This document shows, in pieces, positions 22,131-54,012 of a DNA stretch of 64,000 bases. How positions within the stretch are numbered: position 1 is the stretch's first letter; every line of letters starts with the position of its first letter. Origin of the DNA: Alphaproteobacteria bacterium (lineage in GTDB: Bacteria > Pseudomonadota > Alphaproteobacteria > Rs-D84); contig JAFUTJ010000008.1 in NCBI GenBank assembly GCA_017471445.1, forward strand, positions 48,382-112,381. The letters are read 5' to 3'. Below the pieces are notes generated by a model that was not told where the DNA came from, did not search any database, and saw nothing but the letters and a program-made list of their open reading frames with translations. Both the position numbers and the translations under genes were made by a program.

Positions 22131-22144
22131 GGGGGGGGGGGGGG
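22131..22144. repeat. G14 homopolymer tract
   Basis: Counted directly: 14 consecutive G between ...caattgtggt and ctgccgg. It sits at the junction of two gene fragments. Confidence 0.95.
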
Positions 22145-22524: not shown

Positions 22525-23547
22525 TTAATGCAGATATATTTTAAAGAATTGTTCCAATTTATCAAATGGTATTACGGCCATATTGTCATATAAATCAACA
22601 TGACTTGCGCCTGGGATAATCATCAATTCTTTATTGTCACCGGTCAGTTTGGCAAATGCACCTTCGCTAAAATAACGACTATGTGCTTTTTCGCCATGTA
22701 TCAGCAACACAGGACTGCGAATTTCGCTGGCATACTGTAAAATCGGCATGTTGATAAATGATAAAGAACTGGTTTTATTCCAACCGTTATTTGAATTCAA
22801 CGACCGTCTGTGATACCCACGTGGCGTTTTGTAATACGCATAATAATCTTTGATAAATTGCGGCGCGTCGGCCGGCAGTGGGTCAACAACCCCACCGGCC
22901 AATTCGTATTTGCCGTTTTTATAATCAATTGTTCTTTGATTATTTAGCGCCACTTTGGTCGCATATCTGGCATATGCATTGTTGTCAACATCGTTATATC
23001 CATTTGCAGAAACACGCGTCATATCATACATTGTTGAGGCAACCGTAGCCTTGATTCTAGTATCCATCGCGGCAACGTTTATTGCCATTCCACCCAAGCC
23101 ACAAATTCCAATTATTCCTATTTTTTCTGCATCAACATCTTTGCGATTTGATAGATAATCAACAGCGGCAGAAAAATCCTCTGTATTTATATCCGGCGAG
23201 GCAACATAGCGTACATTACCGCCACTTTCACCCGTAAAGGACGGATCAAAAGCCAATGTAATAAAACCACGCGATGCCATTTCTTGAGCGTACAGTCCGG
23301 ACGATTGTTCTTTGACGGCGCCAAATGGCCCAGACACCGCGATTGCCGGCATGCTATCTGACGGTTTGTATTTTGGCATATACAAATCGCCAACCAATTC
23401 AATTCCATAACGATTTTTAAAATGAACTTTCTGGGTTAAAACATCGGGATTTTTTGGAAAAACCTTGTCCCACCTGTTACATGGTACCAGGATATAGCCC
23501 AATATACCACAAATTACAAGCAACAATATCACGATTATTAATCTCAT
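22525..23547 (-). CDS. alpha/beta-fold hydrolase with N-terminal membrane anchor
   Basis: 340 aa. The nucleophile-elbow-like GICGLGG and the overall pattern are typical of alpha/beta hydrolases. Confidence 0.7.
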   Translation of the reverse strand: MRLIIVILLLVICGILGYILVPCNRWDKVFPKNPDVLTQKVHFKNRYGIELVGDLYMPKYKPSDSMPAIAVSGPFGAVKEQSSGLYAQEMASRGFITLAFDPSFTGESGGNVRYVASPDINTEDFSAAVDYLSNRKDVDAEKIGIIGICGLGGMAINVAAMDTRIKATVASTMYDMTRVSANGYNDVDNNAYARYATKVALNNQRTIDYKNGKYELAGGVVDPLPADAPQFIKDYYAYYKTPRGYHRRSLNSNNGWNKTSSLSFINMPILQYASEIRSPVLLIHGEKAHSRYFSEGAFAKLTGDNKELMIIPGASHVDLYDNMAVIPFDKLEQFFKIYLH

Positions 23548-38416: not shown

Positions 38417-38492
38417 TCGGGCATAGTTCAGTCGGTAGAACAACGGACTGTTAATCCGTATGTCACTGGTTCGAGTCCAGTTGCCCGAGCCA
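38417..38492 (+). tRNA. tRNA-Asn (anticodon GUU)
   Basis: TCGGGCA/TGCCCGA acceptor stem, anticodon loop CTGTTAA, TTCGAGT T-loop, encoded CCA. Near-identical core to the E. coli tRNA-Asn layout. Confidence 0.9.
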
Positions 38493-38496
38493 CATC

Positions 38497-40026
38497 TTAC
38501 AACCCTTCGCAAAAAGCAATTTGTCGAAGGTTTTTTTCAAGTAAAAACCAAGCACTTGTTTCTTTCAACTCACCGTTCGATAATATAGTTTTTAAAAATT
38601 CACGTTTTTTAGCATTTATCGAACAGTTCATAATATCTACTGCATGCCCTGCTATGTCGATTATATGGTTTAAGGTCTCTGCAGCTCCTTTATCTGCTTC
38701 TGGTGTCCCTTCGAGTATATCTTGCAGTTTTTGTATCTCTTCTTTAAATTCTGCTGTCTTTGTGTTGTATAAAGCTTCGGAACACTTACCGTCTAAAAAT
38801 GTATCTAACAACTTCGATTCTTTACCCTTTATTGCTTGTATCTGTGCCATGATTGATTGTTTAGATGGACGTGTTACCTTATTCTCTTGTGCAAGACGTT
38901 CTCTTACACCAGTTTTAACGGCATCTAAGAAACTTTCATCTATTTGTATATTAGAGAATATTTAATCTTGTAGTTGTTGTAATATATCTTCTTCTTTAAC
39001 TAAACACTGTGGACAATTAGACTTACTTTTACCATGGTTATTACATTTAAGATAGTTATGTCTGTTACCGCTTTTTGATATGTGATATTCGCCACCACAA
39101 TAACCACATTTTAAAAGACCACGAAACACAAAATCCTTATCTGGTCCACCCATAGTAAAATTCTGCTTCTTTTTACTCTCAATCACATCTTGAACAATAT
39201 CAAACAAGGTTTTATCTATTATTGGTTCATATTGATGTCGAACAAAAGTATTACCGGATTTCATCATTCCATAATAAAACTTATTCCGCAATATATCTTG
39301 TATGTGTTGTTTACATATTGTTTTTCCGCTTTTATTTTGTCTACTTCTTAAATTCATTTCTTCTGCCATCTTAGCCAAACTACCGAAAGTTTCTGTACCT
39401 TTGGCGTATTCTTCAAAGAGTTTTCTGACCAATGGCGCCCTTTCTTCATCTATTTTGAGAGTTGATTTACCATTCTCATCCTTACAATTTATATAGCCAA
39501 TAGGCGCAAAATTTTGAAATTTTCCCTGTGACCTGTTATATTTTTGGCTACGTTTTACATTGTCAGTCATACTTACAACATATGCATTTGCCATTAATAC
39601 AGCCATGTTCCAGAAAATAATTTCCATACCTGTACTATCTTTTGTTAATATTAGATTTTCTTTTAAGAAATGTACTTCTATCTTGCCTTCTTTTCTCATT
39701 TCATCCAGCGCAGGCGTATCATTATAACTTCTCTGTAATCTATCAACACAATTAACAACGATAGCTATTTTATCTTTATAGTTTTGAACAAAATTCAACA
39801 TTTCGTGATACTGCTTTCTGTCACCACGAGTGGAAGATTCTGCCAAAATATATTCTTTAATTGATTCAAGACCGTTTTCTTTACAATAATTACGAATGCT
39901 TTCCAACTGTGCATCTATGGATGACCCTTCGTCTTGTTGATGTTGAGTTGATACGCGTGCGAAAATAACCGCTTTTTCACATTTTGCATATGGATCAAAC
40001 TTTTTTACTGCCATTTTATACTCCAT
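38497..40026 (-). pseudogene. large serine recombinase interrupted by a single in-frame TAA (38962-38964)
   Basis: AVIFARVSTQHQ (catalytic Ser), a recombinase domain and a zinc ribbon (LLKCGYCGG...LKCNNH). The ORFs 38962-40026 and 38497-38850 are in the same frame, and the read-through text ...QLQD*IFSNIQIDESF... is continuous. Confidence 0.8.
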
Positions 40027-40432: not shown

Positions 40433-40461
40433 TTGATTTTATTGGACTTTTCGGGTATAAT
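40433..40461 (+). promoter_or_regulatory. near-consensus sigma70 promoter of the Type I R-M operon
   Basis: TTGATT, 17-nt spacer, TATAAT (40456-40461), 25 nt upstream of the hsdR ATG. Confidence 0.6.
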
Positions 40462-40486: not shown

Positions 40487-42979
40487 ATGACATTTGATAA
40501 ATTACGGGATGATAACGAAGCGTACGCACGCTTGAAAATTAATCAGAAGTTGATTGACGCTGGTTGGTTTTTGACCGATACACCGGAACACAAACGCAAT
40601 GTGAATGTTGAACAAAAGGTTGATTCTGGGTTCGCTGACTATGAAATGCTGGATTCGAACGGCTTTCCTTTGTGTGTTATTGAAGCAAAAAAGCCATCAA
40701 TCAACCCATTAAGTGCCAAAGAACAAGCGCACAGGTATGCAACCGAACACAATATCCGGTTTGTTATTTTATCAAATGGTGAAATTTATTATTTATGGGA
40801 CATAAAATCAGGTAATCCACAAATCATAACCCAAATACCAACCCAGGAATCTTTGGAAATGCGTTTCGGGTTTAATCCGCAAACCAAAGATATAATGAAA
40901 GAAAACATTATTCCTGAATATGTCGCATTACAGAAGAATTCGCGTTTGTTGGATACACCCGAATATCAAGACCCAAAGACGCGCGGTGCGTATTGTTGGA
41001 ATAATGGATTGCGTATATTGCGTGATTATCAACTTGGTGCTATTCGTGCAGTGCAACAAGCAATCGCCGATGGTAAAGACAGATTTTTGATTGAAATGGC
41101 GACTGGATTGGGTAAAACATTGACAGCGGGTGCAATAATTCAAATGTTATTACGCACCGGACACGCGCATAGAGTTTTATTCCTTGTTGACCGTATTGAA
41201 TTGGAACAGCAAGCGTGGAAAAACTTTAATGATTATCTGTGCGATTTCATAACGGTTATTTATAAAGAAAATACAAAGGATTGGCACAAAGCGGATATTA
41301 TTGTTTCAACCATCCAAACATTGATGGCGAGTGATAAATATAAACATTTTTCACCAACTGATTTTGATTTTATAATATCAGACGAAGCACACCGTTCAAT
41401 CGGTGGTAACAGCCGCGCAGTATTTGAATATTTTATCGGTTATAAATTGGGATTAACCGCAACACCACGCGATTATATTAAAAATGTGGATGTTGATAAA
41501 ATCAAAGTCAATGACCCAAAAGCGCTTGAACGCAGATTATTATTGGATACATATAAAACATTTGGTTGTGAAAGCGGTGAACCAACATACAAATACACAA
41601 TGATTGATGGTATTAAAAACGGTTATTTAGTTGCCCCGATGGCTATTGACGCACGCACAGATATAACCACAGAGATGTTATCCGAAAAAGGTTATCATGC
41701 GATTGGTGTTGACGACAATGGTGAGGATGCCGAAGCCGATGTTGTTGTAAAAGATTTTGAAAAACGCTTTTTCAATGAAAATATAAACGCGGTATTTTGC
41801 AAAGCATTCCTGGAAAATGCAGAACGCGACCCAATCAGTGGCGAAATTGGTAAAACATTGGTATTTTGCGTCAGTCAATCACACGCTGCAAAGATTACCC
41901 AGATGTTGAACGAATTGGCTATGCAGGCATTCCCAGGTAAATACAACAGTGATTTTGCTGTCCAGGTTACCAGCACGGTCCAAAACGCACAGCAAATGAC
42001 AAATCAGTTTATGACTGATAATAATAATCTGGGTGGTAAATCAACATTTTTAGAAGGATATGATACATCAAAAACGCGCGTATGTGTAACCGTTGGAATG
42101 ATGACGACGGGTTATGATTGCAGCGATTTATTAAACATCGTATTTATGCGACCTGTGTTTTCACCGACTGATTTTGTGCAAATGAAGGGACGCGGAACCC
42201 GTAAATATACATTCAAATATGTTGACCAAGACAAGAACGAAATCAAGAAAGACAAAGAACGGTTTAAGATGTTTGATTTCTTTGGTAACTGTGAATATTT
42301 TGAAGAAAAATTTGATTACGGACAACAATTAAAATTACCGCCATTGTCCAAAGGAGTTGACGTTGGAACGCGGTGTGGCGAATCACGAACATTTACAACA
42401 TTGACATCCGAAGAGATAACCAAACTGATTCAAATGGAAACGCTTAACATACCAGACAATGGTATGCGTATTGACCGCGAATTCTGGGGCAATTTCCAAA
42501 AGACAATCTGTGCGGATATTGATATTAAAAATGCGGTTAAAAACAGTGATTGGGATTATGCGGTTGCTTTGGTTAAAGATAAATACGAAAACAAACCTGA
42601 ATTGTATCCCAACCTTGAAAAAATTAAAAAAGCGACAAAATTGGACCGCCGTTTATCTTGGCGCGAAATATTGGAACACATATTCGGTCTGCTGCCCCGG
42701 TTTAAGACACGCGATGAAATGTTAGAGGATGAATGTGATAAATACATATCCATTGTTAAACCTGACGCTGAAATTGTGCCGTCCATTAAAAATTTTATAA
42801 AATTATATGTTACGGATAATACATTTCGTGATATAATAGAAAAACAGGAATATCCGCGACTTAACGCTGAAATTCCTGGATTCAGTATGATGGATTTAAA
42901 GTTGATGGGTAAAGACATCCGCGAAAATTTACCGGAATACATCAAAGAAAACATTGTTTTGAATAAATATATGGGGTAG
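40487..42979 (+). CDS. hsdR: Type I restriction enzyme R subunit (HsdR-like, PD-(D/E)xK N-domain + DEAH helicase)
   Basis: FADYEMLD...CVIEAKK nuclease-like N-terminus, then MATGLGKT, IISDEAHRS, TATPR and MKGRGTR motifs. Confidence 0.85.
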   Translation: MTFDKLRDDNEAYARLKINQKLIDAGWFLTDTPEHKRNVNVEQKVDSGFADYEMLDSNGFPLCVIEAKKPSINPLSAKEQAHRYATEHNIRFVILSNGEIYYLWDIKSGNPQIITQIPTQESLEMRFGFNPQTKDIMKENIIPEYVALQKNSRLLDTPEYQDPKTRGAYCWNNGLRILRDYQLGAIRAVQQAIADGKDRFLIEMATGLGKTLTAGAIIQMLLRTGHAHRVLFLVDRIELEQQAWKNFNDYLCDFITVIYKENTKDWHKADIIVSTIQTLMASDKYKHFSPTDFDFIISDEAHRSIGGNSRAVFEYFIGYKLGLTATPRDYIKNVDVDKIKVNDPKALERRLLLDTYKTFGCESGEPTYKYTMIDGIKNGYLVAPMAIDARTDITTEMLSEKGYHAIGVDDNGEDAEADVVVKDFEKRFFNENINAVFCKAFLENAERDPISGEIGKTLVFCVSQSHAAKITQMLNELAMQAFPGKYNSDFAVQVTSTVQNAQQMTNQFMTDNNNLGGKSTFLEGYDTSKTRVCVTVGMMTTGYDCSDLLNIVFMRPVFSPTDFVQMKGRGTRKYTFKYVDQDKNEIKKDKERFKMFDFFGNCEYFEEKFDYGQQLKLPPLSKGVDVGTRCGESRTFTTLTSEEITKLIQMETLNIPDNGMRIDREFWGNFQKTICADIDIKNAVKNSDWDYAVALVKDKYENKPELYPNLEKIKKATKLDRRLSWREILEHIFGLLPRFKTRDEMLEDECDKYISIVKPDAEIVPSIKNFIKLYVTDNTFRDIIEKQEYPRLNAEIPGFSMMDLKLMGKDIRENLPEYIKENIVLNKYMG

Positions 42980-42983
42980 CGAA

Positions 42984-44888
42984 ATGTTGGATTCCAGAAC
43001 AAAACAAACCATTGATAATGCCTGCGATACATTGGTGGGCAAAGTGCCAAGTCCACAGACACAGGTTGATATTATTACAACCGCGCTGATTTATAAATTC
43101 ATGGATGATATGGATTTGGATGGTTTGGAATTATCGGACAAGCGGACATTCTTTGTTGGTGATTTGGAACCATACGCATTTTCAACCATTGTTAACACCA
43201 AGGGTAACCAAGAACGGATGAACCTGTATTTAACTGGGCTTGAAAAGGTGCAGACCGCAAAATCGGTGCCTGAATTATTCCGTCGTATTTTCAAAGAAGC
43301 GATGATACCTTTTCGCGACCCGACAACATTTGCGTTATTTTTAAAGGAAATCAATGAATTAAAATATGACGATTCCGAAACATTGGGGGATGCATTTGAA
43401 TATTTATTGAATAAAATGGCAACCGCAAAGAATGCCGGACAATTCCGCACACCGCGCAATATAATTGATTTTATTGTTGATGTTGTTAAACCAACCAAAG
43501 ACGATACCATTTTGGACCCTGCGTGTGGGACGGCTGGATTTTTGATTTCCGCATATAAACACATCACATCGGGTGGTAAATTAACACCAGACGAATTAAA
43601 ACGGGTTACAAACAGCATTGTTGGATTAGATATTGACCCAACAATGGTAAAATTAAGTTTGGTTAACCTGTATCTGCATAAATTTGAACAACCAAACATT
43701 TATGAATATGATACATTGTCCAATGATACGCGTTGGGGTGACCGGTATGATGTTATTTTGGCGAACCCACCATTCATGACCCCAAAGGGTGGAATTACAC
43801 CACACAAACGCTTTGCAATCAATGCAAATCGCAGTGAAGTTTTGTTTGCAGATTATTTTATGGAACATTTGACTATCAATGGACGCGCGGGTTTTGTTGT
43901 TCCCGAAGGTATTATATTCCAAACCGCCAATGCATATAAGGAATTGCGTAAAATGATGCTGGATGGTTTTTTGTATGCGGTTGTATCATTACCATCTGGG
44001 GTGTTTAATCCATATGCCGGTGTAAAAACATCAATATTATTCTTTGACCGCGCATTTGCAAAAACCAATGACAATATATTATTTGTGCGTGTTGACAATG
44101 ATGGTTTTTCATTGGGTGCACAACGCACACCAATCAAACAAAATGATTTACCCGAAGCGTTAAAGATTATTAATGAATACCGCGACGGTAAAGATGTATC
44201 GGGTTATGAACGTGCAATGGTTGTATCCAAAGAACGTATTGCCGAAAATAATTATGATTTAACCGCTGCGAAATACATCGAAAAAGAAACCCGAGAATGT
44301 AAATATGAAATGGTTAAACTTGAAGATGTCACAGAAATTATAACGAAAGGAACAACCCCAACAACACTCGGATACCAATTTGTTGATGATGGGGTTAATT
44401 TTATAAAAATTGAATCTATAAATGATTCTGGGGTTTTTATTCCTAGTAAATTTCAGCACATAACCAACGATTGCAACAATAAATTGAAGCGTTCACAATT
44501 ACAAGAAAATGATATTTTATTTTCTATCGCAGGTGCTTTTGGGCGCGTTGGTGTTGTAAATAAAGACATTTTACCAGCCAACACAAACCAAGCATTAGCA
44601 ATAATACGATTAAAAAATCAAATTGTTTTGCCAAAGTATATCGCAACAGTATTAAAATCGTCTTTCATTTTGGATAAAATTTCAGCATTAAAGGTTGGTG
44701 TTGCACAATTCAATATATCTTTGACACAAGTTGCGAATCTTGAAATCCCACTTCCACCGTTGGATGTGCAGCAACAGATTGTGGATGAAATTGAAAATAA
44801 ACAATCCGCAATCAACCATGCGCGTGAAATCATTAAAAATCTAGAGAGAGAGAGAGACAATATTTTGCCTGCCTTCTTGACGGCATAG
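42984..44888 (+). CDS. hsdM: Type I R-M methyltransferase fused to one HsdS target-recognition domain (HsdM-halfS)
   Basis: FRTPRNII, DPACGTAGFL and ANPPFMTP (NPPF motif), then the end of the M part (NNYDLTAAKYI). This is followed by an HsdS-like TRD (VKLEDVTEIITKGTTP...) and a conserved helix (LPPLDVQQQIVDEIE). Confidence 0.85.
   Translation: MLDSRTKQTIDNACDTLVGKVPSPQTQVDIITTALIYKFMDDMDLDGLELSDKRTFFVGDLEPYAFSTIVNTKGNQERMNLYLTGLEKVQTAKSVPELFRRIFKEAMIPFRDPTTFALFLKEINELKYDDSETLGDAFEYLLNKMATAKNAGQFRTPRNIIDFIVDVVKPTKDDTILDPACGTAGFLISAYKHITSGGKLTPDELKRVTNSIVGLDIDPTMVKLSLVNLYLHKFEQPNIYEYDTLSNDTRWGDRYDVILANPPFMTPKGGITPHKRFAINANRSEVLFADYFMEHLTINGRAGFVVPEGIIFQTANAYKELRKMMLDGFLYAVVSLPSGVFNPYAGVKTSILFFDRAFAKTNDNILFVRVDNDGFSLGAQRTPIKQNDLPEALKIINEYRDGKDVSGYERAMVVSKERIAENNYDLTAAKYIEKETRECKYEMVKLEDVTEIITKGTTPTTLGYQFVDDGVNFIKIESINDSGVFIPSKFQHITNDCNNKLKRSQLQENDILFSIAGAFGRVGVVNKDILPANTNQALAIIRLKNQIVLPKYIATVLKSSFILDKISALKVGVAQFNISLTQVANLEIPLPPLDVQQQIVDEIENKQSAINHAREIIKNLERERDNILPAFLTA
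44842..44856 (+). repeat. (AG)7 dinucleotide repeat at the junction between HsdS TRD1/central helix and TRD2
   Basis: Read directly: t-agagagagagagaga-c at 44842-44856, encoding ..LERERD... Confidence 0.95.
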
Positions 44889-44905
44889 ATTACAACGAAG
44901 TTAAA

Positions 44906-45478
44906 TTGGGGGATGAAAAATATTTTAATATTGAATCTGGTGGCACCCCATTAACCACAAATGATGATTTTTGGAATGGTGGCATAAATTGGATAAGTTT
45001 GATGGATGTTCCCAACGATGTTGATGTTAATATAATCAACAGCACAACAAAGACAATATCGGAACAAGGTCTAAAACATTCATCAGCAAAATTATTACCA
45101 GTTGATACAATTGTGGTGTCAAGCAGAGCCACTATCGGCAGGGTTGGACTTGCAAAAATCCCACTAACCACAAATCAGGGTTTTAAGAATATAATCATAT
45201 TAGATAATAATGCTATTGAACCGAAATTTGTCGCTTTTGCAATGTTGCAGAAAAAGCAAGAAATGGAACAAAACGCATCTGGTGGAACATTCAAAGAAAT
45301 ATCAAAAACAAATTTTGCTAAACTATCTATTCCTTTACCATCCATTGACGACCAAAGACGCATTGTTGCAAAATTGGAAGCGGAACAGGAAATTATTGAC
45401 GCAAACAAACGCTTGATTGATTTAATGCAAGATAAAATCAACCAGGTTATTAACCGTATTTATAAATGTGATTTATAG
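44906..45478 (+). CDS. hsdS: HsdS second half (TRD2 + distal conserved helix), out of frame with the upstream M-S ORF
   Basis: LGDEKYFNIESGGTP...TTNQGFKNII...LSIPLPSIDDQRRIVAKLE are typical HsdS motifs. Only a TTG start and no obvious RBS. The frame stays open upstream through DGIDYNEVK. Confidence 0.75.
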   Translation: MGDEKYFNIESGGTPLTTNDDFWNGGINWISLMDVPNDVDVNIINSTTKTISEQGLKHSSAKLLPVDTIVVSSRATIGRVGLAKIPLTTNQGFKNIIILDNNAIEPKFVAFAMLQKKQEMEQNASGGTFKEISKTNFAKLSIPLPSIDDQRRIVAKLEAEQEIIDANKRLIDLMQDKINQVINRIYKCDL

Positions 45479-45480
45479 TT

Positions 45481-46173
45481 ATGGTAGAATATTCTGACGA
45501 TAATCCGGTTTATTTGTTAGCGGATTTTCTGCCGCCACTTGATGAAACTGTTGCATATTTATATAAATACAAAGATGATTTTGCATATCATTATGAACGT
45601 GAATTTTACAATCTGGCACTGTTTTCATATCATCAATTGTACATGGCTATATTGCATATGTACCTGTTAAAGTTTCACAGAATGGATATAAAAATCGCTG
45701 GGGCCTGCAGGCAGAATCATCCACATTTAAGCACATTATCACCATCTTTTTATTCTGATATCAAAGATGAAAAAGACCGTATAGATCTTTTCAGCAAGAG
45801 ATTAACACCAGAAACAAAAGAAAAACACAAGGATTTAGTTAAACAAAGGGATAGAATTGCACATTTTACTGGTGATGTATTAACCAAAGAACAAATCGAT
45901 AAATATATAACAAAATCCATAGAAGTATTGAAATCTATTCAATCTGTCGCTTTTTATGAATTGCTTTTGCGTTCTGAAGATAGATTTGGAAATCGTATAA
46001 CTGAAATACGACAAGAACAGAACAAAACAGAAAAATTTTCTAAAATATCATATTTGATTCAAGATTTTTATTTATCTAAAAATGATATAGATTTTTTAAA
46101 ACCTAAATCTGATTTTATGTTTTTTGATGAATATATATCAGAAAATGGCTATGAACCAATTGAATATTTCTAG
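45481..46173 (+). CDS. hypothetical protein with HEPN-like R-x4-H motif, translationally coupled to hsdS
   Basis: The ATG lies 2 nt after the hsdS stop. The protein looks helical and contains LVKQRDRIAHFTGD (R-D-R-I-A-H). Confidence 0.5.
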   Translation: MVEYSDDNPVYLLADFLPPLDETVAYLYKYKDDFAYHYEREFYNLALFSYHQLYMAILHMYLLKFHRMDIKIAGACRQNHPHLSTLSPSFYSDIKDEKDRIDLFSKRLTPETKEKHKDLVKQRDRIAHFTGDVLTKEQIDKYITKSIEVLKSIQSVAFYELLLRSEDRFGNRITEIRQEQNKTEKFSKISYLIQDFYLSKNDIDFLKPKSDFMFFDEYISENGYEPIEYF

Positions 46174-46695: not shown

Positions 46696-47751
46696 TTATT
46701 TTGTTGTGTAGAAAGTTGTGCGTCCGTTACCATGTTTAACCAAGCGGCCACTTTCTGTCAAATTACGCAAAATATTCTTTACTGTGCTAAGTTTTATGTT
46801 CAGATATCCTGATAATTCCCCAGACGACCATTCTGGACGTGCTTCAAATGCACTTAAAATATTTAATGCATTACGGGATAATGAAGTATCTCCACCACTA
46901 ACCCTTTCCAGTTTGGATTCCAAATGACGTTTTTGTTTCTGCAATGATGTGATAAAGAAATCCAACCATGGTACATAATCAACAACATCTGTCCATATTG
47001 TCTTTTGGGTTTCATGCAACGAACGATAATACATTCCCTTGCTTGCTTCGATTATCGATTCCATTGATGAATATGGCACATATGAATACCCATTTTGCAA
47101 CATCAACATTGTTGTTAACGCACGCGACATACGACCATTACCATCTTTGAACGGATGGATTGACAAGAAATGCACAATAAATACACCAATAACAACAATC
47201 GGATGCAAATATTTTTCTTTCAGGTGTAAATTAGTCCAATCTAACAATTCGCCTATCAATCTTGGTGTATCAAACGGTGTAGCAGTTTCAAATATTGAAC
47301 CTATTTCATTACCATTTACATCAAAAGCCGCAACACGATTAGATGTTTTTTTGTATTCACCACGATGTTCAATATCCTTGGTTGAATGTCCCATCAAGAT
47401 TTTATGCAACTGTTTGATATAATTTTCGTTCAAAGGGATAACCGAATAATCATTGAAAATACGTTCAATCAAATCTGCATATCCGGCGACTTCTTCTTCG
47501 TCACGACTTTTAAAAGATGTCTGTTTGATGTTTTTGAACAGATTTTCAATTTCAGCATCAGACATCTTGTTGCCTTCAATACGATTTGAAGAACCGACAG
47601 ATTCAATCGTTGCTACCATTTTCATTGCACGCAAAACCTCTGGTCGAACTTTGATGGCCCCACTGTCCCAATTTGCCTTGAACATATCCAATTCTGCGAT
47701 TTTATTCAGCATTTCTGGTGTAATTTTGATATTATTTATGTTCGGCATCAT
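46696..47751 (-). CDS. Fic-family protein (intact) with C-terminal winged-helix domain
   Basis: Canonical HPFKDGNGRMSRAL motif. 351 aa. C-terminal ...LSTVKNILRNLTESGRLVKHGNGRTTFY. Confidence 0.9.
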   Translation of the reverse strand: MMPNINNIKITPEMLNKIAELDMFKANWDSGAIKVRPEVLRAMKMVATIESVGSSNRIEGNKMSDAEIENLFKNIKQTSFKSRDEEEVAGYADLIERIFNDYSVIPLNENYIKQLHKILMGHSTKDIEHRGEYKKTSNRVAAFDVNGNEIGSIFETATPFDTPRLIGELLDWTNLHLKEKYLHPIVVIGVFIVHFLSIHPFKDGNGRMSRALTTMLMLQNGYSYVPYSSMESIIEASKGMYYRSLHETQKTIWTDVVDYVPWLDFFITSLQKQKRHLESKLERVSGGDTSLSRNALNILSAFEARPEWSSGELSGYLNIKLSTVKNILRNLTESGRLVKHGNGRTTFYTTK

Positions 47752-47998: not shown

Positions 47999-49455
47999 TT
48001 GAAAGCAATAAACCTGATATCTTTATCAAATGCGTTTATGTCTGAAGTTTCGGACGAATATATTAATTATGTTGATATAACCCCAAAAGATACAGAAAAA
48101 ACTCTTTTATTAAATTGTGCCAAAAATTACTTTCTTTACAAATTCCAGTTTTTAAATTAAGCGATTTTTTCTTCGGCTATAATATTCCGCAAATCGGGAA
48201 AGAATTTGATTTGCTTAAAATTGGCAATAATTACAATTTAAATATAGAATTAAACAGTTCATCAAATGAAGCAAAAATCATTAAACAGTTACAATTAAAT
48301 GAATGGTATTTATCCAGTTTAAATTTACCAATATATTTATATTGTTATGTTTCGGACACAGATACATTTTATACATTGGATACAGAACATAATTTGACAA
48401 TTATTGATCCAGAAGACATTAAACAATCCATTATGGAACAAGAAGTTCGATATTTAGATAACTTAGATATTTTATTTGACCCATCGCATTACTTGGTATC
48501 CCCCTTCAACGCAACGGATGATTTTATTGCAGACCGTTATTTTTTAAGCCCGCAACAAGATAATGTTGAAAGAGACCTGGATTCTGTTTTTACAAATTCT
48601 ACCAGTAATATCGTTTCTATAGAAGGTGATGCTGGAACTGGGAAGTCTTTGTTATTATACGATTACGCAAAAAAATTAATTTCCAAGAACGAACAACCGT
48701 TAATTGTTCACGTTGCGAAGCTGAACCAAGGACATAAAGATTTAATGCAAGAACACCATTTTTCAATTTGTGAAATCAAAGATTTTATGAAAATTTTAGA
48801 AAATTTAAATAATTTCGATATTATTTTGATTGACGAAGCTTAACGATTAAAAACTGGTCAACTTAATAAAATTATAGATTATGTTTTTTCCCACAAAATC
48901 AATTGTGTATTTGGATATGACGAAAAACAAAAACTCTCTCAAAAAGAATATAAAAATGGAGCCGTTGAAATAATCAATTCAAATTCTATAAAAAAGTATA
49001 CATTAACACATAAAATTCGAACAAATAAACATCTAGATAAATTCATAAAATCTATGTTTAATATAAAAAACGGTAAAGTTGGCAGTTTAAACAATGTTTC
49101 ATTGGTATATTTTAATAGTCAACAAGCAGATGTTTTTAATTACATCACAAACAAAGAAAATTATAAATTTATCCGTTATACACCATCAATTTTTTCAAAT
49201 ATCGATAATCGATTTCTTATTTTTGAAACACCACACGAAGTAATTGGTCAAGAATTTGATAATGTAGTAGCATACATGGGACCTAGATTTTATTATGATG
49301 ATGAAGGTTTGTTAAAAGCCAGAAACACAGATGGAAATCCTTATGATTTTTTAGGTATGTTTTATCAAACTGTAACACGAGCAAGAAAACGTTTAGAGAT
49401 TGTTATAATAGATAATCCCACAGTGTTTAAAACACTGTCAAATATACTAAAATAA
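47999..49455 (+). pseudogene. DUF2075-type helicase/nuclease-like protein, disrupted (DEAQ -> DEA-stop, plus an N-terminal frameshift)
   Basis: FGYNIPQIGKEFDLLKIG...NIELNSS (DUF2075-like N-terminus), GDAGTGKS, then IILIDEA-TAA-RLKTGQL (48841-48843), where DEAQRL is expected. The C-terminal ORF 49054-49455 continues the same frame. Confidence 0.65.
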
Positions 49456-53817: not shown

Positions 53818-54012
53818 ATGGGCTGGAAAACTTTAAGATTTGAACAATGTATGACGCCATCAGGTCAACAAATCCTTGAATGTTGGTTAGACGAAGACGG
53901 CCGTCCAAAACACTTATTAGAAGTTGTGCAACTTCGGAATGATGGTATGGGGGGGGCGCATGCGATAGTTGAATGCAGAAATCGTTATGAACATTTAACC
54001 TGGAAACACTAA
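53818..54012 (+). CDS. small hypothetical protein (64 aa) containing a G8 tract
   Basis: Start MGWKTLRF. G8 at 53949-53956 encodes GMGGA. Confidence 0.35.
   Translation: MGWKTLRFEQCMTPSGQQILECWLDEDGRPKHLLEVVQLRNDGMGGAHAIVECRNRYEHLTWKH

Follow-up and report, generated by a model that had tools for sequence, protein, structure and literature searches.

A 64,000-nucleotide stretch of DNA from an Alphaproteobacteria bacterium (lineage Rs-D84; GenBank assembly GCA_017471445.1, contig JAFUTJ010000008.1, positions 48,382 to 112,381), referred to below in its whole length as the window, contains a restriction-modification (R-M) operon in which the methyltransferase gene hsdM continues in frame into the specificity gene hsdS, with a run of seven AG dinucleotides at the junction between the two target recognition domains (TRD1 and TRD2) of the specificity part. 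By analogy with characterized systems, slippage at this (AG)n tract would toggle the fused gene between a long form with two TRDs (M-S) and a one-TRD form (M-half-S) of differing specificity, a reading to which we assign a probability of about 80%.

The tract (AGAGAGAGAGAGAG) occupies positions 44843-44856 of the + strand, the strand on which all the genes of the operon lie, and is followed by A 44857. A first interpretation made from the letters alone (hereafter, the sequence-only reading) had correctly located an (AG)7 repeat at the TRD1/TRD2 junction, but had set its start one base too low (44842-44856). The tract is the only dinucleotide run of five or more units in the 64-kb window, and when the window was shuffled 100 times with its dinucleotides preserved, an (AG)7 run never arose. 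The fused open reading frame (ORF) crosses the run as CTA GAG AGA GAG AGA GAC... and terminates at a TAG codon at 44886-44888, in accordance with the sequence-only reading, which had described an HsdM frame that runs into one TRD and its helix, crosses the repeat and then stops. The last 10 residues of the product (DNILPAFLTA, encoded with the stop codon at 44856-44888) overlap, in another frame, the linker QYFACLLDGID of the long form.

The gene was rebuilt in silico with other numbers of repeat units, and three products resulted. With n = 6 or 9, a continuous M-TRD1-TRD2 protein of 830 or 832 amino acids (aa) was encoded, with the junction ...NLERERQYFACLLDGIDYNEVKLGDEKYFNIESGGTP...; with n = 4, 7 or 10, the frame led to short form A, with the 10-residue tail ...DNILPAFLTA*; and n = 5 or 8 rendered a third product, short form B, ending in ...ETIFCLPS*. 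The window is in the n = 7 state and encodes short form A, a 634-aa protein composed of M, TRD1, the helix and the 10-aa tail. The segment comprising the linker, TRD2 and the distal conserved helix CR2 (44858-45478; 206 codons plus a stop) does not share the frame of M-TRD1 in the window; it is joined to that frame when n = 6 or 9. Removal of a single AG unit is thus enough to produce the 830-aa protein, with the very junction that had been anticipated, and the predicted frame toggle between an M protein with one TRD and an M protein with two TRDs was reproduced by the rebuilt genes.

Modelling indicated which parts of the protein the frameshift leaves untouched. The repeat encodes the residues ERER, which form the last turn of the central helix of the HsdM-HsdS fusion. 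In the AlphaFold2 model of a natural long form (protein P0001), TRD1 was followed by a helix at residues 589-620 (LDVQQQ...NLERER), the linker QYFACLLDGID, TRD2 from residue 632 and a second helix at residues 783-822. Since the first of these helices, the central conserved helix CR1 (LDVQQQIVDEIENKQSAINHAREIIKNLERER; 44760-44855 in the window), ends at the repeat-encoded ERER in the modelled long form, the frameshift would spare M, TRD1 and the helix entirely. For its part, the 634-aa protein of the window was modelled with a mean pLDDT of 81 and with a C-terminal helix at residues 593-633 that runs through the alternative-frame tail. This modelled helix has 41 residues, compared with 40 for the distal CR2 helix of the long form. 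In the models, the simple-sequence repeat (SSR) is accordingly placed as expected for an SSR-controlled hsdS gene, between TRD1 and TRD2, and appears to leave a one-TRD product that retains a dimerization helix.

The spelling of the tract is at odds with the codon usage of the four genes of the operon. Glutamate was encoded by GAA 116 times and by GAG 4 times, AGA accounted for 10 of 83 arginine codons, and CTA accounted for 3 of 161 leucine codons. Under the operon genes' own codon usage, the probability of E-R-E-R being written as GAGAGAGAGAGA was about 2e-5. This spelling runs against the codon usage of the operon and the same tract recurs in distant lineages (see below), which shows that the AG tract has been maintained.

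To compare tract lengths, assemblies with identical DNA flanks on both sides of the tract were used, each sample being represented by one consensus. The comparison of the locus among relatives, which had been put forward as a check, yielded lengths from n = 4 to n = 8 in independent assemblies: n = 4 in locus L006; n = 5 in L003-5; n = 6 in L001, L002 and L008; n = 7 in the window, L007 and L099-101; and n = 8 in L098. A length of n = 9 was implied at the protein level by the tail LERERERQYF. Loci L098 (n = 8) and L099 (n = 7) were 99.95% identical over 7,673 aligned nucleotides, their differences being 2 mismatches and a single gap of 2 nt that is the AG unit; L098 and L101 derive from adjacent BioSamples of one study. 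Similarly, a single protein cluster at 90% identity contained members of 613 aa (n = 7), 611 aa (n = 8) and 807 aa (n = 6). Tract length thus varies among otherwise conserved alleles and strains, as is characteristic of phase-variable hsdS genes with SSRs. A scan of JGI metagenomes with the flanks retrieved one locus, L008, with n = 6. Tracts interrupted by point changes (LEKER) are also known, in both the long and the short states; one such interrupted allele, in which a tract of (AG)7 length bears one G-to-A change (as in L104), was present on 12 or more contigs, where both hsdR and the TRD2 frame are intact.

The motif was present in 106 proteins, of which 76 were long, 28 were short in the DNILPAFLTA-type frame and 2 were short in the third frame. 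This 28:2 bias between the two short frames suggests selection for short form A.

These comparisons also bear on a trivial explanation, namely, that the tract really has six units and the seventh was introduced by mistake in the metagenome-assembled genome (MAG). Dinucleotide runs are somewhat error-prone, and the consensus of a MAG can be chimeric. However, the same 634-aa product was encoded on 4 further Logan/ENA contigs as well as in the NCBI MAG (five assemblies), (AG)7 recurred in many independent assemblies of other alleles, and 14 nt lie well within read length. The exact 634-aa protein corresponds to P0223 (Logan/ENA), and P0007 is MBR1380206.1 ('MAG: Alphaproteobacteria bacterium'), for which NCBI chose another start codon. 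An assembly error, which the sequence-only reading had named as a result that would speak against it, is therefore disfavoured, to the point that we consider it scarcely credible.

The second TRD had been described as lying in another frame, with a TTG start, no obvious ribosome-binding site (RBS) and a frame open back through the repeat, and all of these features were confirmed. As a separate ORF, TRD2 extends from a TTG at 44906 to 45478 (190 aa; Methylase_S, 4.9e-24). Its frame is open upstream to 44837, through the repeat, where it is bounded by a TAA at 44834-44836, and further in-frame starts are found at 44999/45002 at the earliest. No GGAG-like site precedes the TTG at 44906 and no ATG lies near the 5' end, and hence no convincing independent start was found for TRD2. 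In every relative, whatever the value of n, the TRD2 frame was fully open and free of secondary lesions. Comparison of the out-of-frame TRD2 of the window with the in-frame TRD2 of L001 gave a synonymous divergence (dS) of 0.85 and a nonsynonymous divergence (dN) of 0.067 (dN/dS, 0.078). TRD2 is, by these measures, intact and under purifying selection.

The constraint on TRD2 in n = 7 genomes would also be expected if TRD2 were translated there. In such a case, TRD2-CR2 would be made by termination-reinitiation at the TTG at 44906, 17 nt past the stop codon, and would pair with M-TRD1-CR1 into a complete S, so that the frameshift would alter subunit architecture and the stoichiometry of M more than specificity, or would yield a mixture of TRD1/TRD1 and TRD1/TRD2 enzymes. 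Genes of the operon lie 2 to 4 nt apart without strong RBSs, translational coupling being the local norm, and the downstream ORF was called by gene callers in every relative. On the other hand, the absence of an RBS is unfavourable to reinitiation, and the lone start codon at the 5' end, TTG, is the Leu codon of a conserved KLGD motif; in the relatives the called start is a GTG or lies elsewhere, and none is conserved as a start. In addition, loci L092-94 retained the short form after the loss of TRD2, one-TRD systems exist in nature, and the constraint on TRD2 is equally well explained by reversible switching. We consider such a split S unlikely, and it and the toggle between M-S and M-half-S are not mutually exclusive. 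Programmed slippage on the AG run, ribosomal or transcriptional, would be another conceivable means for one cell to produce both forms.

The same data argue against ordinary decay, in which a neutral or slightly deleterious frameshift would have struck a defence gene on a mobile island, the AG run being a mutational hotspot without any selected role in switching. Defence islands do decay: the serine recombinase and the Nhi/AbiO-like gene of the window are split (see below), hsdR is frameshifted outside any SSR in two relatives, one with n = 5 and one with n = 4, and the window allele has n = 7 wherever it was seen. Yet a hotspot of this kind would not account for a tract written against codon usage and conserved in lineages 54 to 65% identical, for a TRD2 with a dN/dS of 0.08 and no secondary lesions at any n, or for the 28:2 choice of frame among short forms. 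Furthermore, the frameshift takes nothing away from M, TRD1 or the dimerization helix, and the window and most n = 7 relatives retain an intact hsdR. Decay is thus very improbable. To judge from the constraint on TRD2, the sparing of the helix and the lineage that kept the short form without TRD2, both products appear functional.

Searches for relatives placed the fused gene in a large family. Full-length M-TRD1-TRD2 proteins of 780 to 850 aa span the (AG)6 reading from end to end (8000 matches at E <= 1e-10), the closest being 78 to 84% identical to it. At least 585 loci in species-representative genomes, from many phyla, encode a relative of the M-S fusion. The sequence-only reading had called the fusion itself unusual, which does not hold: it is non-canonical but not rare, and the name 'Type IMS' was proposed in 2012 for M-S fusions that carry either one TRD or two and have HsdR as a separate subunit (Roberts et al. 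2012; PMC3510504). One-TRD fusions of 600 to 655 aa were also abundant, with dozens at 640 to 655 aa; the M-domain-only protein search brought these natural one-TRD fusions and the distant short forms to light, but its list was skewed to shorter proteins and left out P0001-P0006, and no ratio of long to short forms is claimed from it. In L102 and L103, an 825-aa R gene was accompanied by M with a single TRD, 65% identical to TRD1 of the window, the second TRD being absent.

The tract itself was found at the same codons, as (AG)7, in lineages whose M domains are 54 to 65% identical to that of the window (L089-97). In L089-91 and L095-97, TRD2 was displaced from the M-TRD1 frame by a shift identical to that of the window. 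In L092-94, found in three or four samples, the body of TRD2 was deleted, while the loci kept their (AG)7, a short-form tail (DNILLAYLTA) and an R gene of 737 aa; as their sequences read, these loci are a snapshot of a two-TRD fusion turning into a one-TRD fusion. A remnant of the distal helix (...IPLPSLANQKRIVASLDEEQKIIEANKRLVEMMKGKIEGV...) was seen at about 5330-5480 in L092-L094, in the third frame, past the (AG)7 short-form stop. An (AG)6 run occupied the same site in Patescibacteria loci L064 and L087 (Wolfebacteria, Saccharibacteria), and an (AG)4 version was present in Endomicrobia. The tract is carried by uncultured bacteria of the gut or termite gut, which belong to the Alphaproteobacteria (one of them a Holosporales MAG), Endomicrobia and Patescibacteria; related contigs came from gut metagenomes.

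A ten-residue tail pattern, x-x-I-L-x-x-x-L-x-x, was shared by the 28 short-form proteins, including those of lineages 54 to 65% identical in M, which is suggestive of selection on the short-frame tail. The I-L of the tail derives from TAT-TTT and the F/Y-L from CTT-CTT-GA, and the pattern is not rigorously separable from constraint on the overlapping frame. A broader interpretation, to which we give somewhat less than even odds, is that the AG tract is an ancient switch module of natural 'Type IMS' systems, dual-coding and under selection, and not a lineage-specific accident, with about 30 nt after the tract readable in two frames and the third frame avoided. One frame would provide the linker into TRD2, and the other a 10-residue helix extension with a stop at a fixed position, so that the module would encode an M-S enzyme as well as an (M-half-S)2 enzyme that is sufficient by itself.

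Several observations weigh against the toggle between M-S and M-half-S. Exact n = 4, 5, 6, 8 and 9 versions of the window allele were absent from a collection of 15 billion proteins, and that allele had n = 7 in every assembly holding it (one NCBI MAG and 4 Logan/ENA contigs). An identical n = 5 allele was found in three samples (L003-5) and the interrupted allele on its 12 or more contigs, from which it follows that switching is not fast relative to the spread of strains. The (AG)7 tract is short. A mutational bias towards expansion may explain part of the frame bias, the counts include alleles that are not independent of one another, and the tail may owe part of its conservation to Y-F and L-L codons that are conserved in the long frame. 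Finally, a two-TRD fusion would call for a second M subunit, and the engineered fusion of EcoKI needed added HsdM in vitro (PMC3510504).

The mechanism that we propose would operate as follows. Slipped-strand mispairing at replication would alter n. With n = 6 or 9, the long form M-TRD1-CR1-TRD2-CR2 (830/832 aa) would be made; with n = 4, 7 or 10, M-TRD1-CR1 would be made, the tail of short form A lengthening its helix to that of the terminal conserved helix; and n = 5 or 8 would give the rarer short form B. On the model of NgoAV and of engineered fusions, the short form would homodimerize through its helix into (M-half-S)2 and read a symmetric bipartite site in which the TRD1 half-site is repeated, whereas the long form would read an asymmetric site composed of the TRD1 and TRD2 half-sites. 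The one-reader and two-reader products thus very probably recognize different DNA sequences, and a population would hold two specificities of methylation and restriction, and possibly a third, all of them heritable and reversible. Since hsdR is intact, the specificities of modification and restriction would both switch, and a role in defence is at least as likely as one as a phasevarion.

The analogy with NgoAV and half-HsdS proteins drawn in the sequence-only reading proved apt, and it is backed by engineered M-S and M-half-S fusions (PMC6158711). In NgoAV, a Type IC system of Neisseria gonorrhoeae, a poly-G tract switches HsdS between a full and a truncated version, with a change of specificity, and the truncated form dimerizes (as cited in PMC7383803). 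There, as here, an SSR between the TRDs shifts the frame to give a full two-TRD or a truncated one-TRD product. The repeat of NgoAV is, however, a homopolymer in a free-standing hsdS, whereas the present one is a dinucleotide repeat in an hsdM-hsdS fusion known from sequence alone. For their part, the engineered fusions of the Staphylococcus aureus CC398-1 system represent exactly the two architectures between which the AG switch would alternate (Bower et al. 2018; PMC6158711). The M-S fusion, MSfus, methylates ACCN5RTGA, the M-half-S fusion methylates the palindromic ACCN5GGT at 99.7% of sites, and both restrict with HsdR. These were laboratory constructs made from a canonical three-gene system and devoid of a switch, unlike the natural, heritable switch proposed here.

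In the survey of Atack et al. (2019; PMC7383803), 7.8% of the hsdS genes in REBASE carried SSRs, 'invariably' between the TRDs; AG[n] tracts were reported in hsdS genes of Mycoplasmataceae, and NgoAV was the one experimental case; SSR-driven switching of Type I specificity has been demonstrated by experiment essentially for NgoAV alone. The present locus fits all the sequence-level criteria of that survey, having a dinucleotide tract of at least five units, inside an ORF, between TRDs and with strain-variable length. The systems surveyed have separate hsdS, hsdM and hsdR genes, however, and the word 'fusion' is absent from the main text of that paper (PMC7383803); moreover, they come mainly from cultured pathogens, whereas the carriers described here are uncultured gut and termite-gut bacteria. 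An SSR between hsdS TRDs thus belongs to a described class, and what appears to be new is its occurrence in an hsdM-hsdS fusion, where it would switch between two complete architectures. Further differences from that class appear to be the conservation of a short dinucleotide tract across distant lineages, the apparent preference for one short frame and the uncultured gut hosts.

The fused hsdM-hsdS gene (42984-44888 in its short state) encodes an N6_Mtase domain at aa 131-437 (PF02384, 2.8e-59) with the motif NPPF (ANPPFM in the sequence), TRD1 at about aa 440-590, the central conserved helix and the 10-aa alternative-frame tail. PADLOC identified it as MTase_I (5.6e-101), matches to HsdM chains in the PDB reached 1.6e-44, and Pfam recognized a single Methylase_S domain in the 634-aa product, at aa 440-620. 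Directly upstream lies an intact gene for an hsdR-like restriction subunit of 830 aa (40487-42979), whose product combines an HSDR_N nuclease-type N terminus with a superfamily 2 (SF2) motor (Pfam HSDR_N_2, HSDR_N, ResIII, DEAD and Helicase_C; PADLOC REase_I, 2.8e-59). Its best NCBIfam match was the R subunit of the EcoAI/FtnUII family, with 220 bits against a cut-off of 550 bits, and it is therefore not an equivalog of that named family. Orthologues of 825 to 839 aa were found directly upstream of the M-S gene in L001, L007, L089, L095, L099 and L102. Single-base frameshifts in hsdR were seen at non-repeat sites in L003 (about 1277; n = 5) and L006 (about 2216; n = 4), which would be restriction-minus with the methylase kept. 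That the hsdR splits might represent a second SSR switch was considered and rejected, the indels of L003 and L006 being at non-repeat sites and the interruption at 1485-1494 in L098 being a stretch of Ns at a gap in the scaffold.

In the window and in every relative fetched, M and S were encoded in one ORF, and no separate hsdM gene was called in the flanks examined (L001, L007, L099 and L102). The locus shares with Type I systems an HsdM-type methyltransferase and an HsdR with a nuclease-type domain and an SF2 motor. Two TRDs split by conserved helices are present as well, in the window solely in the n = 6/9 reading; by contrast, the separate M and S polypeptides of M2S1 and R2M2S1 enzymes are replaced by a single one. 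An hsdM gene fused in frame to hsdS, next to a separate hsdR, is the arrangement of 'Type IMS', and the locus is predicted to be a two-gene Type I-like R-M system consisting of an HsdR motor-nuclease and an HsdM-HsdS fusion. The EcoKI M-S fusion resembles it in having HsdM fused to HsdS and HsdR separate, but that fusion was artificial and dependent on free HsdM in vitro (PMC3510504), whereas the present one belongs to a natural family without a separate hsdM in the loci examined. Type IIB/IIG and ISP enzymes (BcgI/BsaXI, MmeI, LlaGI) also have a gamma-class N6-adenine methyltransferase fused to, or partnered with, Type I-like TRDs, and weak sequence matches to BsaXI chains were obtained with the M-S protein. 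They differ in carrying the nuclease (and, in ISP enzymes, the motor too) in the M polypeptide; the M-S protein has N6_Mtase and Methylase_S domains alone, and the HSDR_N and SF2 helicase domains are encoded by the separate upstream gene.

The end of hsdR and the M-S gene are separated by 4 nt, and the end of TRD2 is followed after 2 nt by a conserved ORF of 230 aa (45481-46173), the probable fourth gene of the operon. Homologues were found at the same position in L007 (70% identity), in L001, where the ORF is truncated to 128 aa, and in the distant L095 (38%), and 230-aa ORFs were called there in L104-107. No match to its product was found in Pfam, NCBIfam or PADLOC; it may be an uncharacterized fourth component of these M-S fusion systems. 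A consensus scan detected a promoter-like sequence, TTGATT-17-TATAAT (40433-40461), just upstream of hsdR, which is a weakly indicated candidate for the operon promoter: in promoter and terminator scans of the region, sites were no more numerous than in shuffled sequences.

On one side, the operon is flanked by a tRNA-Asn gene and a split large serine recombinase, and on the other by SoFic-like and Nhi/AbiO-like genes. To judge from these neighbours, it is located in a defence island on an integrative element. The tRNA-Asn gene lies at 38417-38492, and the recombinase appears to be divided between two ORFs on the - strand, an N-terminal one of 354 aa (38962-40026) and a C-terminal one of 117 aa (38497-38850). 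In L001, L006 and L104, a recombinase of 527 to 528 aa and a DUF2924 gene are found upstream of hsdR. With its recombinase split, the integrative element carrying the R-M system may have been immobilized in the window. A scan of IMG/VR with the locus gave no match and thus no sign of phage carriage.

The genes for the SoFic-like Fic protein and the Nhi/AbiO-like protein are located at 46696-47751 (- strand) and at 48115-48843 and 49054-49455 (+ strand). The Nhi/AbiO-like gene is present as two ORFs, corresponding to profile positions 50-272 and 341-470 of 470, and is probably disrupted. Downstream of the M-S operon, several relatives have either a Gabija-like pair, composed of an OLD-TOPRIM ATPase and a UvrD helicase, or just the UvrD helicase (5999-8627 in L007; L104-L107, about 7235-9893 in L104; 5943-7904 in L089). 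The cargo beside the same restriction module is thus variable, SoFic and Nhi/AbiO-like genes in the window versus OLD/UvrD genes in relatives. Elsewhere in the window, where the genome has 38% GC, four homopolymers were noted: G14 (22131-22144), C10 (23833-23842), C8 (7599-7606) and G8 (53949-53956). The G14 and C10 runs are intergenic, mutually complementary and flank an alpha/beta-hydrolase-like ORF (22525-23547, - strand); they may represent additional contingency loci or mark the two ends of a segment that was inserted or can invert.

The natural HsdM-HsdS fusion family is widespread but hardly described, and in the member studied here the frameshift would do more than truncate a subunit, since it would convert an M-S architecture into an M-half-S architecture expected to dimerize. 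If the dual-coding module were real, the engineered pair of MSfus and M-half-S would have a counterpart in nature that is able to evolve, and the locus would offer a route for the interconversion of one-TRD and two-TRD fusion families. In uncultured gut bacteria, a variable specificity of methylation and restriction would touch phage defence, gene flow and the binning of metagenomes on the basis of methylation.

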